Assembly: GCA_033345275.1 (NCBI GenBank)
Contig: JAWPOF010000007.1
Coordinates: 21,760-85,759, forward strand
From: Alphaproteobacteria bacterium
GTDB taxonomy: Bacteria; Pseudomonadota; Alphaproteobacteria; Rs-D84
DNA: 64,000 bases
Direction of reading: 5' to 3'
The notes beneath the pieces were generated by a model, which was given only the letters and a program-made list of their open reading frames with translations, was not told the origin of the DNA and made no database searches. Of the stretch, positions 13,548 to 64,000 are shown piece by piece (within the stretch, counting starts at the first letter, position 1; each line of letters opens with the position of its first letter). Made by a program: the position numbers and the translations under genes.

Positions 13548-13623
13548 GGGGACATAGCTCAGTTGGTAGAGCAAATGACTTTTAATCATTGGGTCCAGGG
13601 TTCGAGTCCCTGTGTCCCCACCA
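13548..13623 (+). tRNA. tRNA-Lys (anticodon UUU)
   Basis: GGGGACATAGCTCAGTTGGTAGAGCAAATGACTTTTAATCATTGGGTCCAGGGTTCGAGTCCCTGTGTCCCCACCA. Near-identical architecture to E. coli tRNA-Lys, anticodon loop CTTTTAA, 7-bp acceptor stem, encoded CCA. Confidence 0.95.
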
Positions 13624-13630
13624 AAAATTC

Positions 13631-13659
13631 AACGACCGCTTGCCGGTCGTTTAATTTTT
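13631..13659 (+). terminator. Rho-independent terminator after tRNA-Lys
   Basis: Hairpin aacgaccgcttgccggtcgtt followed by taatttttg. Confidence 0.7.
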
Positions 13660-13759
13660 GTATGGGGCGCGGACGAGAACCCAAAAAGGGTTCGGAACGT
13701 TAGTTGCTGAAAACAAGCGTATGCGCCGTTTGAACCTTACGAAGTGAATGGGGATTTAC

Positions 13760-13778
13760 AGTCCCTGTGTCCCCACCA
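13760..13778 (+). repeat. 19-nt direct repeat of the tRNA-Lys 3' end (agtccctgtgtccccacca), an att-site-like scar
   Basis: Exact copy of tRNA positions 13605-13623, located 136 nt downstream of the intact tRNA. The upstream flank gggatttaca is a degenerate T-arm. Confidence 0.8.
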
Positions 13779-59607: not shown

Positions 59608-60405
59608 GTGGCAATTACAATTAATACGATTTCGCCAGTTGCATTTTCCATATTGGGCATAGATATTCGTTGGTATGCGCTGGCTTATATCGTTGCATTT
59701 GTGATTGGTTATTGGCTGTTTTGCCGTTTAATGCGTCGCTCTGGCGGCGCATTATCATTGAATAAAAAGCAAATGGACGATTTGCTGACCGCGATTATAC
59801 TTGGGGTTATCATAGGCGGCCGTTTGGGGTATGTTTTATTCTATGACCTGGGGTATTTTCTGGCGCATCCGCTGGAAATTTTTGCGCTGTGGCATGGTGG
59901 CATGAGTTTTCATGGTGGGTTGCTGGGGGTAATTTTCGCGACATTTTTGTTTGCGCACCGTAAAAAGATAAACGCATGGAGTGTCCTGGATTTATTGGCG
60001 GTTGTTGCGCCAATTGGGTTGTTCTTTGGCCGTATCGCAAATTTCATTAACCGCGAGGTTATGGGGCGCCCAACCGATGTTTCGTGGGCGGTGGTTTTTA
60101 ATGGCGATACCCCAATACCGCGTCATCCCAGCCCATTGTACGAGGCGGCCACCGAGGGCATTTTGCTGTTTATCATAATGTATTGCCTGTATCGTTACAC
60201 AAATCTGCGCAAATACCCTGGTGCATTGGGGGGGATTATGGGCATGGGATACGCGCTGTTCCGCATGTTTTGCGAATTGTTCCGCGCCCCCGACGCCCAG
60301 ATTGGTTTTCTGACATCTTGGGGATTGACGATGGGGCAGTTGTTATCTTTGATAATGTTTTTTGCTGGGCTGGCGATTTTTATATTTGCAATACGAAAAA
60401 AATAA
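59608..60405 (+). CDS. lgt: Prolipoprotein diacylglyceryl transferase
   Basis: Lgt signature FGRIANFINREVMGRPT (G-x-GR-x-x-NF-x-N-x-E) and GGRLGYVLFY. 265 aa. Confidence 0.92.
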   Translation: MAITINTISPVAFSILGIDIRWYALAYIVAFVIGYWLFCRLMRRSGGALSLNKKQMDDLLTAIILGVIIGGRLGYVLFYDLGYFLAHPLEIFALWHGGMSFHGGLLGVIFATFLFAHRKKINAWSVLDLLAVVAPIGLFFGRIANFINREVMGRPTDVSWAVVFNGDTPIPRHPSPLYEAATEGILLFIIMYCLYRYTNLRKYPGALGGIMGMGYALFRMFCELFRAPDAQIGFLTSWGLTMGQLLSLIMFFAGLAIFIFAIRKK

Positions 60406-60508
60406 TGTACAATATGCGCCGTTGACCAAAACCAAGAAAGTCTGGTTTGCGAACACTACGAAGCGTCAGCGAAGTGCGGTGCGAGTATGATAAAATCATA
60501 CGCAGCAC

Positions 60509-60580
60509 CAAAACCGCAGGTTGAAAGACCGCGGGGAAAAGTTTAGGATGGTTGGCAGACGGGGCGTTGCGGCGGTCTTG
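60509..60580 (+). repeat. Pseudo-tRNA: tandem partial duplicate of the tRNA-Ser(UGA) upstream region plus its 5' half (through anticodon position 35)
   Basis: aaaaccgcaggttgaaagaccgcggggaaaagtttaGGATGGTTGGCAGACGGGGCGTTGCGGCGGTCTTG is ~90% identical to 60660-60732. Identity ends exactly inside the anticodon loop (CTTG|). Repeat period 151 nt. Confidence 0.8.
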
Positions 60581-60697
60581 CATACGAGTAAGCAAGACAA
60601 GCAAAGCGCGGTCGAGCGCTAACGAGTGGTGAGCAGTACCGTCAGGTACGGTCAGCGAACAAAACCGCAGGTTGAAAGACCGCGGGGAAAAAGTTTA

Positions 60698-60787
60698 GGA
60701 TGGTTGGCAGAGCGGTCGAATGCGGCGGTCTTGAAAACCGTTGTGGGGGCAACCCCACCGGGGGTTCGAATCCCTCACCATCCGCCA
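60698..60787 (+). tRNA. tRNA-Ser (anticodon UGA), type II
   Basis: GGATGGTTGGCAGAGCGGTCGAATGCGGCGGTCTTGAAAACCGTTGTGGGGGCAACCCCACCGGGGGTTCGAATCCCTCACCATCCGCCA. Anticodon loop CTTGAAA, long variable arm, encoded CCA. Confidence 0.9.
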
Positions 60788-60798
60788 TAAAAATCAGA

Positions 60799-60832
60799 CA
60801 TCCCGGGTCAATCCCCCGGGATGTTCTTTTTC
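60799..60832 (+). terminator. Rho-independent terminator after tRNA-Ser(UGA) (catcccgggtcaatcccccgggatg + T-run)
   Basis: 9-bp stem, ttctttttct tail. Confidence 0.75.
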
Positions 60833-61011
60833 TCCCCGTTTCAGGCAGTTTTTACCCGCGATATTACCAGTGTATATCACTCCATATGCCCAATTCACCC
60901 AAATCTTCACCTTTTATATACTTCGCCTATTTTAGGGATGTCACTGTTTTACAATTGTTCAGCAGAAGCGATTGCAAACAAATCACTAATATTTTTTGTT
61001 TGTTTGCCAGA

Positions 61012-61038
61012 TAAAATCTTATTGGCTATAAGATTTTA
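61012..61038. promoter_or_regulatory. Perfect 11-bp inverted repeat TAAAATCTTAT-(5 nt)-ATAAGATTTTA, candidate operator
   Basis: Seen directly, ~70 bp upstream of the GT2 fragment in an AT-rich intergenic region. Confidence 0.35.
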
Positions 61039-61107
61039 CATTTATAACCAATAGAGGCAAAATTTTACCAAGGACAAAGAATCAAATACGTATTAAATAT
61101 AAAAAAA

Positions 61108-61839
61108 AACTGTGGTCCAGCTACCGCACGTAATTTGGGATTGCAAATCGCAATTGGGAAATATATTGGATTTATAGATTCTGATGATTATGTCGATTTG
61201 GATTTCTATGAAAAATTGTATAGTGCTGCAATCGAACAAAAAGCCGATATATCCAAAACAACTGCCATAATGATTAATCCAGATGGCATTACAAAAAGTG
61301 TATTTGGCCCTGACTTTACGGACATACAAAAAAGCAAATCAGCCCTGTCGTATTCTTTTACCACGTGCATTTACAATCGCCGTTTCCTAAATAAATATGA
61401 TATTATTTTTCCAACAGATCTGAAACTGGCAGAAGATGCGTATTTTATTTTAAACGCATCATCGCATTCGAATAAAATCGCTTTGATTATGTCAACAAAT
61501 TATTATTATGTACGTCGTACAAATTCATTAGATTCTAGTTCTTTAAATTTAATAAAAATCAAACAGTTAATAAAATATGTATCAAAAATCATACAGTTAA
61601 TAAATAACTCGCCTTTGAGCGAGGAAGAATATAATCAAACTTTTTTATGGAAAATTAATTACCTTTTAACAGATATATTTTTTAGAACAAACAATAAAAA
61701 CTCACAAGCGTTCATTACAAAAAAAGCAAAACAATTGTGGGACCTATACAAATACAAAAAACAATATACCGCAAAATATATCAGCTATACCAACCACAAC
61801 AACCAACAGGGCATACAATTAACAATAACCCATATTTAA
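61108..61839 (+). pseudogene. 5'-truncated family-2 glycosyltransferase (lacks the N-terminal ~90 aa with the DxD/UDP-binding half)
   Basis: Frame opens right after a TAA (61045) with no start codon. Homology begins at NCGPATARNLGLQIAIGKYIGFIDSDDYV (GT2 xGPAxARN...G.Y..F.DSDD motif). An A9 homopolymer lies immediately upstream. Very AT-rich. Confidence 0.6.
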
Positions 61840-62723
61840 CCACTGATAAAATTACCAATAGCTGGTATTACCCATGCTTCTAAATCGCTTTCTTTTATTG
61901 CATGCAAAGATTCTTGGACATTTAACCAATAAACCAAGTTAACCGTTTCCACCATATTTAACTGATGCAATCTATTTTCATCAATATGCACACCCGTTTT
62001 TTGTTCATACTTCTGTGATACGATATTAAAGAATTCTTTACCAGAATCAGAAAAGAACAATCGCATAAAATCTTTAGTTCGTTCTCCTATTCCACAATTT
62101 CCCCAATCGAAAACCCCTGCAAGCCTATCGTTTTTATCCAAGACACAATTATTTCCATTAAAATCGCCATGACAAAACACCTTGTCAACCACATTAAAAT
62201 TTAATGCTTCATCATATTTCTTTGCCAAAATCATTAAATCATTCGCTGTAAAGAATGACTTTAAATAATACTCAAGTTCAGCAAAATCTCTAGGACCAAA
62301 TTCTTCATAATACAAATCGACATTTTCTAATTTTGTTTTACTGTTTACTTTATCCGCATCGAGTCCATGAATTTGAGACAGAAAATCCACACAATCATCC
62401 GCTAACGACATTTGTGCTTTTTCGTCCAAACCGCGAACATAATTCATATTCCATGTTCTGCCATCCAGCTTCTTGTGAATAGCGTATGGAAATTCCGCAT
62501 TTTTATTTACAAAAATACATGGCACAGAAAAAGAAATTAAATCACGAATAACATTACAAACAACCGATTCTTTGATATATTTTCCCGGATGTTCACGTGG
62601 AATTCTGACAATTTTATCATCAACCTGAAACGCGATAGATGTCCAGCCTTCACCAAGATATTTTATACATTCATTTGGGAAAGTTGTCTGCAAAAAATCT
62701 GTTAAAACACCCTTGTCTATCAT
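61836..62723 (-). CDS. Phosphotransferase-family kinase (APH / LicA choline-kinase-like), paralog 3, in a glycan locus
   Basis: HGDFNGNNCVLD (Brenner motif) and FDWGNCGIGER. Overlaps the neighbouring GT2 genes by 4 nt at both ends. Confidence 0.65.
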   Translation of the reverse strand: MIDKGVLTDFLQTTFPNECIKYLGEGWTSIAFQVDDKIVRIPREHPGKYIKESVVCNVIRDLISFSVPCIFVNKNAEFPYAIHKKLDGRTWNMNYVRGLDEKAQMSLADDCVDFLSQIHGLDADKVNSKTKLENVDLYYEEFGPRDFAELEYYLKSFFTANDLMILAKKYDEALNFNVVDKVFCHGDFNGNNCVLDKNDRLAGVFDWGNCGIGERTKDFMRLFFSDSGKEFFNIVSQKYEQKTGVHIDENRLHQLNMVETVNLVYWLNVQESLHAIKESDLEAWVIPAIGNFISG

Positions 62724-63610
62724 TTTCTTAACCTTTTTTTGGAAAATATCTTAATACAGCCAAATATGAAAACCCATATACATGTCTTAGACACCGCAAC
62801 AGACAGCAAAGGCAAACCTATTTTAAACCACCTTTTATCATCACACAAAGTTAATTTTATTTGCTTTTGCTTGTTTAAATCTTTTGTCAAAAAATCCAAC
62901 ATGTTTTGTTGAATTTCTGTTGCAACCCTGCGCTGTTTCTCGCTTCGACTATTAGACGAATTGTTCGAATGCCAACGATATTTTAATAAAACTTCGGGAA
63001 TATTCGCCATCTTTAAAACTTTTATCGCACGCGACCAAAGGTCATAATCTTCTGCGGGGGACACATCCGTATTGTACCAGAAACCAAATTTTTTAAAATC
63101 TTTTCTTCTAAACATAACGGCAGGATGCGCCAACCTACATTTTGACAGCATATCTAAATATCCAATTTCAGAAGGATATTCATAAGTAAATTCAACATCC
63201 CCAAAAAATCTTATCCAACTACCGACTACTGATATATCAGGGTTCGATGTTAAAAAATCTAGTTGTTTTTGTAATCTATTTGGCAACGAGATATCATCTG
63301 CATCCATCCTGGCAATAAATTCAGATTTTGATAATCTTAACCCATAATTTAACGCGTCTCCTATATCACCGTTTTCTTTATAAAAATACTTAATTCTGTT
63401 ATCCCGATACGAATCTACCGTTGCTTTCACATGCTTTTCGGTACTTCCATCATCTATTATTAGAAATTCAAAATCTTGATATGTTTGCCCCAATATCGAA
63501 TCTATAGCCTCTCTCAAATATTTTTCTGGCGTATTATAAACAGGCATAAGTACTGATATTTTAGGCATTATATCTCTTGTGTTTTTTAACTCTTTCTTGG
63601 AATGTATCAT
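62720..63610 (-). CDS. Family-2 glycosyltransferase
   Basis: PKISVLMPVYNTPEKYLREAIDSILGQTY..FEFLIIDDGS (GT-A N-terminal signature), DADD motif. 296 aa. Confidence 0.8.
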   Translation of the reverse strand: MIHSKKELKNTRDIMPKISVLMPVYNTPEKYLREAIDSILGQTYQDFEFLIIDDGSTEKHVKATVDSYRDNRIKYFYKENGDIGDALNYGLRLSKSEFIARMDADDISLPNRLQKQLDFLTSNPDISVVGSWIRFFGDVEFTYEYPSEIGYLDMLSKCRLAHPAVMFRRKDFKKFGFWYNTDVSPAEDYDLWSRAIKVLKMANIPEVLLKYRWHSNNSSNSRSEKQRRVATEIQQNMLDFLTKDLNKQKQIKLTLCDDKRWFKIGLPLLSVAVSKTCIWVFIFGCIKIFSKKRLRK

Positions 63611-64000
63611 CTTTCTTTAAATCTAGCAACAGAATTTTCAAATGTGTACTTTTTTGCATTCGCAAAAAATAAGCTATCATCAAACGAGTGTTGAATAGAA
63701 TTTTACACCGTTCTTTTTTTATAACTCCGCCAGTATTCTGGCATACATGCCGACACAGATAAAAAGCCCGCGATTCCGCGGGATTTTTCATGCATTGACT
63801 TTGGTATAGACCAAGAAAACCACATTTTTACACCCAAAAACACCTGTTTCTATACACTGGCCGTTTTCCGATAGTCAATGGTCAGGTTATTGACTTTTCA
63901 AATTAAACACACTATAATTATAAACATGAAAACACAAATTGCATTTTGTTCTTTCACTTGGTGGCTGTAGTCGCAGCCAGTATTCTTCACACCTATTATA

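Follow-up and report, generated by a model that had tools for sequence, protein, structure and literature searches.

Partial copies of tRNA genes lying beside the intact gene are usually read as the dead footprints of integrated elements. Cis-mobilizable elements (CIMEs), for example, are degenerate islands of kilobase size that lack recombination genes, carry attachment-site (att)-like flanks and grow by tandem accretion; these elements are not known for constraint at the RNA level. Parts of tRNA transcripts outside the tRNAs can also be put to use, as in Escherichia coli, where the 3' external transcribed spacer of glyW-cysT-leuZ is a sponge for small RNAs. Among the islands catalogued in Islander, 159 of 3919 have a 5' tDNA fragment upstream of the intact gene, and integration sites centred on the anticodon are common (PMC4383910). 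The locus described here lies in a 64,000-nucleotide (nt) stretch of contig JAWPOF010000007.1 from an uncultured alphaproteobacterium (the window), in which the leader and 5' half of tRNA-Ser(UGA) are repeated upstream of the functional gene. This half-tRNA repeat is a member of a conserved module family 5' of tRNA-Ser(UGA) and not a one-off scar: the arrangement, although it resembles a footprint, has been kept throughout a genus-level clade of uncultured gut Alphaproteobacteria, probably within the tRNA-Ser(UGA) transcription unit.

The locus shares features with each of the described systems and departs from each. Like the Islander 5' tDNA fragments, it combines an intact tRNA with an upstream 5' copy in the same orientation (60546-80 upstream of 60698-787), a break in the anticodon loop, tandem repetition and a tRNA gene that is an integration hot spot. 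Unlike them, it has an interval of 113 nt between the copies with no integrase or cargo in 20 loci, and this interval is conserved across species with covariation at the RNA level, in a block that includes the leader and evolves in concert. CIME-like remnants also have direct-repeat flanks resembling att sites, no integrase and tandem accretion, but here the whole "element" measures ~115 nt and probably sits inside a tRNA transcription unit. Spacers of the glyW-cysT-leuZ type are likewise conserved non-tRNA parts of a tRNA transcript with a possible role after processing; however, those are short and pair with known small RNAs, whereas this one consists of a half-tRNA copy and an 80-nt structured domain. 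Finally, tRNA pseudogenes and tandem duplicates show the same identity to a neighbouring tRNA gene in tandem orientation, but in this case the identity covers positions 1-35 only, no tRNA-like fold or similarity follows, and the unit is conserved instead of decaying.

The original prediction, made from the letters of the window, had reported a 72-nt block repeated upstream of the tRNA, with identity stopping after tRNA position 35. Both claims hold: 60509-60580 repeats 60660-733, and identity breaks after the anticodon base G35 (CTTG followed by CATACG in the copy versus CTTG followed by AAAACC in the gene). Positions 60509-60540 are identical to 60660-60691 at 32/32 positions, the likeness extending to 60580 and 60733, and this 32-mer occurs twice in the window versus 0.00 times expected from shuffles. 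The leader is 37 nt long in the upstream copy and 38 nt in the downstream one (A4 versus A5), and the pseudo 5' half differs from the real tRNA by four substitutions and one 1-nt deletion, all in the D-loop. Both ARAGORN and the Rfam tRNA model, the latter with a threshold as loose as E<=10, fail to recognise the upstream copy as a tRNA. The features of the locus, in order, are:

60385-60413, plus strand: promoter-like site TTTGCA-17-TACAAT, overlapping the end of lgt (consensus scan; arrangement conserved in relatives)
60440-60508, plus strand: beheaded type-2 unit that has lost most of its 5' half and kept ACTACGAAGCGTCAGCGAAG (aligned with the intact type-2 units of loci L020 and L003; fold z -3.6)
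60509-60545, plus strand: leader copy 1, CAAAACCGCAGGTTGAAAGACCGCGGGGAAAAGTTTA, with a hairpin at 60514-60534 (exact repeat of 60660-60691; hairpin conserved, with a covarying Y/R pair)
60546-60580, plus strand: pseudo 5' half of tRNA-Ser(UGA), positions 1-35
60581-60659, plus strand: segment X, the conserved and folded RNA domain of the type-1 unit (102 bits with covariance model R1)
60660-60697, plus strand: leader copy 2, adjoining the functional tRNA, with a hairpin at 60665-60685
60698-60787, plus strand: functional tRNA-Ser(UGA) (ARAGORN; Rfam tRNA, 56.6 bits)
60797-60825, plus strand: intrinsic-terminator-like hairpin with a T-run, the first plus-strand terminator past the promoter-like site

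The gene preceding the tRNA, lgt (59608-60405), encodes a protein with at most 79% identity to those of Candidatus Enterousia and related uncultured gut Alphaproteobacteria. Since lgt is followed by tRNA-Ser(UGA) on the same strand within ~1.6 kb at 20 related loci (21 with L023, where the distance is ~5 kb), the locus is syntenic. Two complete tRNA-Ser genes in relatives had been named beforehand as the mark of a decaying duplicate; what the relatives have is a single tRNA or half-tRNA modules. Exactly one tRNA-Ser(UGA) was called at the locus in 41 of 41 loci scanned, and it is the sole such gene found in the window and at every related locus.

Each module consists of the tRNA leader with its hairpin, tRNA positions 1-35 and the ~80-nt segment X, about 152-165 nt in all, and one or two copies stand head to tail directly 5' of tRNA-Ser(UGA) at 20 loci of Candidatus Enterousia-like gut bacteria. 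In this type-1 arrangement the order is leader (CAAAACCGYAGGTTGAAAGACCGRCGG...AAAGTTTA), tRNA positions 1-35/36, X, leader and tRNA, and the break after G35 recurs across the 20 loci. Extra 5' halves with X are found upstream of the tRNA in L006 (two copies), L010, L011, L013 and L031, which also have, at ~90% identity, the 75-80 nt found directly after the window's half-copy. A scan of metagenome and viral (IMG/VR) contigs with the junction 16-mer GGTCTTGCATACGAGT gave 132 matches, mostly due to chance, and the extended unit at 15 junctions in 14 contigs; a complete tRNA-Ser(UGA) begins 152-165 nt past the unit start in 13 of these, and the fourteenth, L152, ends inside X at the contig end. 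At none of the 20 loci is there an integrase, body or cargo between the copies. The copies are 113-117 nt apart with no open reading frame (ORF) in the interval, and the unit periods are 152-165 nt, not the kilobase length of an island. Two short-read contigs with an identical Lgt end inside the first leader copy (L001, 2548-2577; L002, 1158-1184). The samples SRR22308413 and SRR5786440 contain the identical Lgt. Assemblies break at the 72-nt repeat, so metagenome-assembled genomes probably show fewer of these modules than exist.

A covariance model built on X, R1, was searched over 2.15 Mb that included ~100 unrelated control loci. It matched X in the window at the score listed above and elsewhere matched tRNA-Ser(UGA) units only, bar two weak matches at tRNA-Glu modules (18 and 19.5 bits, in L032 and L188). 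No Rfam 15 family was found at E<=10 at 60440-60697 or on the units of L006, L096, L034 and L020, which disposes of a known RNA family, and the module is absent from any RNA family library searched. A phage- or plasmid-borne module was also rejected: there is no copy in INPHARED phages or PLSDB plasmids, and none in IMG/VR except in L088, a host-like contig with the same layout. Two further candidates fell away, a group I intron inserted into the anticodon loop (the segment is too short, a second 5' half stands at its end and Rfam gives no match) and a small conserved ORF in the unit, whose frame is broken by the D-loop indels.

Shorter units also occur, of type 2 in L003 and L020 and of type 3 in L034 and L035. 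In the window, the beheaded type-2 unit holds a hairpin at 60478-60509 (GGTGC-GA-GTATGAT-AAA-ATCATAC-GCA-GCACC). Compared over five loci, the hairpin of type-2 and type-3 units is 97% paired even though both sides have changed in 4 of 7 pairs and the stem sequences are almost entirely different. Its internal loop, 5'-GA / 3'-GCA (also GAA or GC), is constant in the window, L003, L020, L034 and L035, the stems being otherwise free in sequence and the terminal loop A-rich, 3-5 nt long; this internal loop is possibly a protein-binding tandem G-A motif.

The case for a structured RNA rests on X. Its identity between species is 77-88%, versus 68-75% for the lgt DNA of the same species, so that X is more conserved than the neighbouring protein gene, and the sequence upstream of the first unit and the flanking intergenic DNA are unalignable between species. 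X contains the invariant motifs CATACGAGT, AACGAGTGGTGAGCAG and AGCGAA and two hairpins, a long irregular one (60589-60621) and a short one (60636-60649, GTACC/GGTAC). The structure was tested on 17 distinct X sequences and 19 pairs, or 323 cells, of which 99.4% form standard pairs, and six pairs are changed on both sides (20 cells). None of 500 shuffles was as good, a statistic whose significance is overstated because the sequences are related, and registers slid by 1-3 columns were at most 41% paired. The covarying columns of alignment A2 in the long hairpin are 48-80 (A-U, C-G, U-A and U-G), 55-72 and 59-67; the short hairpin has a private double change in the window (GTACC/GGTAC versus GCACC/GGTGC), and the leader hairpin covaries too, at a Y/R pair in A2 columns 128-145. 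Counted by host markers, there may have been at least eight independent compensatory events by our own reading. The plus-strand fold has z = -3.6 versus -2.5 for the minus strand, and many G-U pairs would be A-C on the opposite strand, which argues that the folded molecule is RNA of the tRNA's strand. The conservation and compensatory changes of X fit a conserved structured RNA or cis leader element.

A second pairing involves the same bases. GCAAGAC of X (60592-98) has a possible partner in the pseudo 5' half, GTCTTGC (60575-81); this GCAAGRC/GTCTTGC pairing is kept in 100% of cases, its three variable positions switching only between Watson-Crick and G-U, and the resulting hairpin is part of the minimum-energy fold of nearly every unit. 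Because the long hairpin and the 5'-half hairpin use the same bases and both are kept, there appear to be two alternative conserved conformations. Other pairings are less well supported. Long-range pairings between the 5' half and X in minimum-energy folds were rejected, as they vary between species and do not covary. For pairing of the 5' half with the genuine 3' half as a selected feature the signs are mixed: position 7 usually tracks the tRNA, but in L175 the unit carries T7 and the tRNA G7. The restriction of mutations to the D-arm is compatible with selection or gene conversion alike.

The repeated blocks do not diverge independently. Leader (45 nt) and 5' half (36 nt), taken together as an 81-nt block, are 91% identical within a locus versus 84% between loci, and the leader by itself gives 90% and 80%. 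In many cases an upstream 5' half matches the tRNA of the same species at 36/36 positions, species-specific bases included, and otherwise D-arm differences are the only ones seen. These comparisons indicate that the blocks evolve in concert within a genome, so that the sharp end after G35 marks the edge of a homogenised repeat and not of decay. Within tandem doublets X is identical in L006 and has one difference in L197, and some close relatives are one unit apart (L003/L004, L010/L007 and L020/L026); near-identical doublets together with gain and loss of units fit unequal crossing-over between the 72-nt repeats.

How would the modules be transcribed? The leader part of the repeated block had been taken for a promoter, a label that finds no support: the only promoter-like match in the leader by consensus scan is TTGAAA-17/18-TAGGAT, and its -10 hexamer overlaps tRNA bases 1-4 and so cannot serve the tRNA. 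The site at 60385-60413 is the better candidate: relatives have the same -35/-10 arrangement, either where lgt ends or ahead of the first unit and in every case preceding that unit, and the site is probably the start of a tRNA-Ser precursor containing all modules. The only plus-strand terminator is that at 60797-60825, and neither promoter nor terminator lies between the modules and the tRNA. With a promoter-like site upstream and a terminator only after the tRNA, the modules most likely belong to a single tRNA-Ser precursor. In L031, L115, L155, L175, L194 and L197, a conserved five-codon ORF encoding MGDPG (ATG GGT GAC CCT GGY TGA/TAA), with a Shine-Dalgarno-like AAGGAG and synonymous changes, lies after the promoter-like site and ahead of the first leader; L007 and L010 have several short acidic ORFs in its place, and the window has none.

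Together, these results make it somewhat probable, in our judgement, that the module is a structured leader element co-transcribed with the tRNA that arose through recombination at the anticodon loop. The flanks of X, CTTG on one side and AAAACCG on the other, are the two sides of that loop, which points to recombination or insertion there, and this is the most plausible origin of the module. A recombination event in the loop would have given rise to the module, and unequal crossing-over between the 72-nt repeats would then multiply and delete copies. Transcription from the promoter at the end of lgt would yield one long tRNA-Ser precursor including the modules, in which X would fold independently and GCAAGRC could lock the duplicated anticodon-stem strand; we propose that with this strand locked, the decoy 5' half would not compete for the single 3' half. 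Cleavage by RNase P at G+1 of the real tRNA would remove the leader and may free a hairpin-ended RNA of ~150 nt. It is conceivable, though doubtful, that the modules encode a new class of tRNA-derived structured RNA of this size, with the 5' half at its head and the leader hairpin at its end, released from the tRNA-Ser precursor and acting in trans or as a conformational switch, the latter suggested by the two mutually exclusive conserved pairings of GCAAGRC. Such an RNA could possibly be a decoy or sensor for factors that recognise tRNA-Ser, or the RNA part of the recombination system behind the fragment-bearing mini-modules of tRNA-Ser, tRNA-Glu and tRNA-Lys in the clade.

Several observations weigh against a co-transcribed structured leader. 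An invariant motif of X, ACGAGTGGTGAGCA...GCGAAC, is found again at the far end of modules that lack an integrase and lie between tRNA-Glu and its 3'-end copy (L032, L188), and a more diverged version is carried by a tRNA-Lys module in the window; the motif could act as a recombination signal in DNA. In the nearest-neighbour model, the long hairpin that has covariation support comes out 4-15 kcal/mol less stable than the fold with the 5'-half hairpin. Invariant single-stranded motifs favour sequence-specific recognition over mere insulation, and presence or absence of a unit between close relatives argues that the module is dispensable. To these points are added the relatedness of the sequences behind the shuffle test and the fact that transcription and processing of the modules are read from sequence.

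Could the module be just the inert scar of a 5'-fragment island? Such an island would have crossed over in the anticodon loop, carrying a leader and 5' half of its own that took the place of the native 5' half, and would later have lost its body, leaving X as fused att arms without a role as RNA. The upstream 5' fragment is a known signature in a minority of islands (PMC4383910), and the first 5' half indeed follows the native promoter and leader in L010/L007, L020/L026, L011, L013, L107 and L141. The conserved leader always travels with the unit, as this model predicts, the displaced copies have D-arm mutations, the same tRNA is a hot spot with serine-recombinase elements and 3'-fragment modules downstream, and the X motif is common to the tRNA-Glu modules and, in more diverged form, the tRNA-Lys module. 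However, the 20 loci hold no integrase or body between the copies, and the constant length of X and its one-strand, G-U-tolerant helix covariation are not expected of protein-binding att arms. X is also more conserved than lgt, and viral, phage and plasmid collections hold no copies but the one host-like contig. As the leader has no credible promoter, a large element would moreover have silenced an essential tRNA. We regard this explanation as unlikely. The original prediction had offered a rearrangement or recombination scar and an integrative event targeting the 5' part among its options: recombination at the anticodon loop survives as the origin, but not as a local accident, given 20 loci and a conserved, covarying X; and the 5'-fragment configuration is one known for islands, but no integrase or body is present in the 20 loci and X is kept as RNA.

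Its remaining option, a decayed second tRNA, fails on the drop from ~100% identity up to G35 to no significant identity after it, with no match to the tRNA model. A more elaborate form of it, a diverged tandem paralogue, supposes an old duplication of leader and whole tRNA-Ser in which the 3' half turned into a new structured RNA and gene conversion kept the 5' half. The type-1 period of 152-165 nt is close to leader, tRNA and a short spacer; the pseudo-tRNA part of type-2 units is exactly 90 nt, like the tRNA, and keeps CTTGA with the UGA anticodon; and by our own reading the elements of X follow a tRNA-Ser-like order (7-nt loop, 5 nt, long hairpin at the place of the variable arm, 5-bp hairpin, 11-nt tail). 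Concerted evolution is demonstrated, and the downstream modules resemble degenerate tRNA-Ser copies retaining only the 3' end. Yet Smith-Waterman alignment of X with the tRNA 3' part against shuffles is not significant (p = 0.02 and 0.16), for which X was rejected as a decayed 3' half, and the tRNA covariance model, run at E<=10, finds no match in units of type 1 or type 2. None of the relatives carries a second complete tRNA-Ser gene at the locus, and decay predicts a less abrupt loss of identity than the one seen, from ~100% to none at a single base, so we hold the paralogue to be quite unlikely. A miniature non-autonomous mobile element (of the miniature inverted-repeat or palindrome-associated transposable element kind, MITE/PATE, or a mini-island), mobilised in trans and targeting tRNA-gene loops, would explain why X lies exactly between CTTG and AAAACCG without target duplication, the hairpins close to both of its ends, the kindred motifs beside tRNA-Glu and tRNA-Lys fragments, and the gain and loss of units between close relatives. 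But X is confined to positions before tRNA-Ser(UGA) in the 2.15 Mb searched instead of being dispersed, no partner transposase or integrase came to light, the divergence of X for the most part tracks host lineages, and the likeness to the tRNA-Glu modules is weak (18-19.5 bits, E 0.016-0.09), all of which leaves such an element highly improbable. The chance of an assembly artefact or fortuitous repeat is close to nil: the repeat does break assemblies, as in the short-read contigs L001 and L002, but the copies differ at defined positions, the architecture appears in independent assemblies of many species and the chance expectation is 0.00.

Fragment-bearing modules are also seen at other tRNA genes of the clade. 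Those at tRNA-Glu(UUC) lie at L032 11051-11205, L188 1803-2060 and 3625-3780 and L033 2396-2620 and end in T-loop-to-acceptor copies; in two of them ACGAGTGGTGAGCA..GCGAAC stands immediately before the tRNA fragment. In the window itself, tRNA-Lys(UUU) (13548-13623) is followed by an exact 19-nt copy of its own 3' end 136 nt on (13760-78), and the intervening body has a terminator and the motifs GGGTTCGGAACGTTAGTTG and AACCTTACGAAGTG, common to the tRNA-Glu modules of L032 and L188. The stretch 13548-13778 looks like an integrase-less mini-island of the tRNA-Glu-module kind, and these cases suggest that one recombination process makes fragment-bearing mini-modules at several tRNA genes in the clade. 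Past tRNA-Ser(UGA) there are further conserved modules, each ~170-260 nt long and closing with a copy of that tRNA's 3' end, AATCCCTC[A/C]CCATCCGCCA; they occur in L004, L006 (12477-12989), L007, L010, L034, L035, L037, L096 and L188, and the window has none. L006 has three of them with an exact 171-nt period. They share a covarying 8-bp stem (GATTTTGC/GCGAAATC versus GATTTCAC/GTGAAATC), and their 5' parts are like a degenerate tRNA-Ser start, with no Rfam or tmRNA call.

On the 3' side of the tRNA the window has an AT-rich island, with the following features:

60788-63732, no strand assigned: AT-rich stretch inserted at the tRNA 3' end and left behind by an integrative element (GC content, left-end homology, right junction)
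61048-61839 (open frame): 5'-truncated GT2, with homology from ~61075 (Pfam)
61836-62723, minus strand: APH-family kinase (Pfam)
62720-63610, minus strand: intact GT2 (Pfam)

The original prediction of an acquired, decaying glycan locus beside the tRNA is upheld by low GC, a left end shared with recombinase elements and deletions in some strains; the AT-rich segment, inverted repeat, A9 tract and intact GT2 it listed are all present, and the kinase that it called LicA-like is a member of the APH family. GC content is 0.305-0.344 in 61-64 kb versus 0.36-0.50 elsewhere; a match of the downstream composition to the genome average had been named beforehand as counting against the prediction. The inverted repeat is a perfect one of 11 nt (61012-22/61028-38). 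The beheaded GT2 is indeed 5'-truncated, ORF 61135-61839 covering Pfam GT2 profile positions 73-126 only, but the break is at ~61075 and not at the A9 tract (61101-09), which lies inside retained GT2 coding sequence. At the left end, 60790-60933 (144 nt) recurs with 74-82% identity after tRNA-Ser in L008, L011, L012, L021, L022 and L115; L012 and L022 have a large serine recombinase and DUF2924 within 1-2 kb of tRNA-Ser, and L088 has the same pair adjoining. At the right end (63726-33), the tRNA-end repeat TCCGCCA (63726-63732) followed by GTATTCTGG aligns with the junction of tRNA end and flank in L088 and L019, which identifies 60788-63732 as an insertion at the tRNA 3' end. The island thus resembles large-serine-recombinase elements in its left end, common with L012 and L022 (Resolvase and Recombinase domains, DUF2924), its compositional shift and its position at the tRNA 3' end, and differs from them in that its 2.9 kb hold no recombinase and its glycan genes are truncated or deleted in some strains. 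The three island ORFs put to Pfam (GT2, APH and GT2) include no large serine recombinase. Among contigs of other samples with an identical kinase, 62930-63510 is deleted in L217 and L218, and L217 also lacks 61065-61265, while L219 keeps more of the GT2 N-terminus and has A8 without the ATA triplet; an exact-sequence look-up matched the kinase but gave no match for the intact GT2.

In other samples of the same strain group, a tRNA-synt_1b gene of the tryptophanyl-tRNA synthetase (TrpRS) type follows the island. After it, ~1.5 kb past window position 64000 (L215 1-120, reverse strand; L218), comes a second junction of tRNA end and island left end, GCCCGCCA followed by TAAAAATCAGACATCCCGGGTCAATCC, with a repeat of CCGCCA plus TAAAAATCAG, and L215 and L218 both break there. 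This arrangement suggests that elements are nested or stand in tandem, or that the island is larger and takes in the synthetase gene. Where the island has ended and the next gene has yet to begin, 63790-63900 of the window and minus-strand 3780-3960 of L088 have repeated TTGACTTTGGTATAG / GTCAATGGT with the dyad TTGGT..ACCAA, possibly the operator of a GntR-type regulator.

Repeats of this kind should not be annotated as att scars or pseudo-tRNAs, and the analysis provides a covariance model and defined boundaries for the module. If the RNA is functional, it would be a new example of a bacterial tRNA-derived regulatory or structural RNA; if it is not, the locus would mean that selection for harmless folding can preserve insertion remnants in tRNA precursors.

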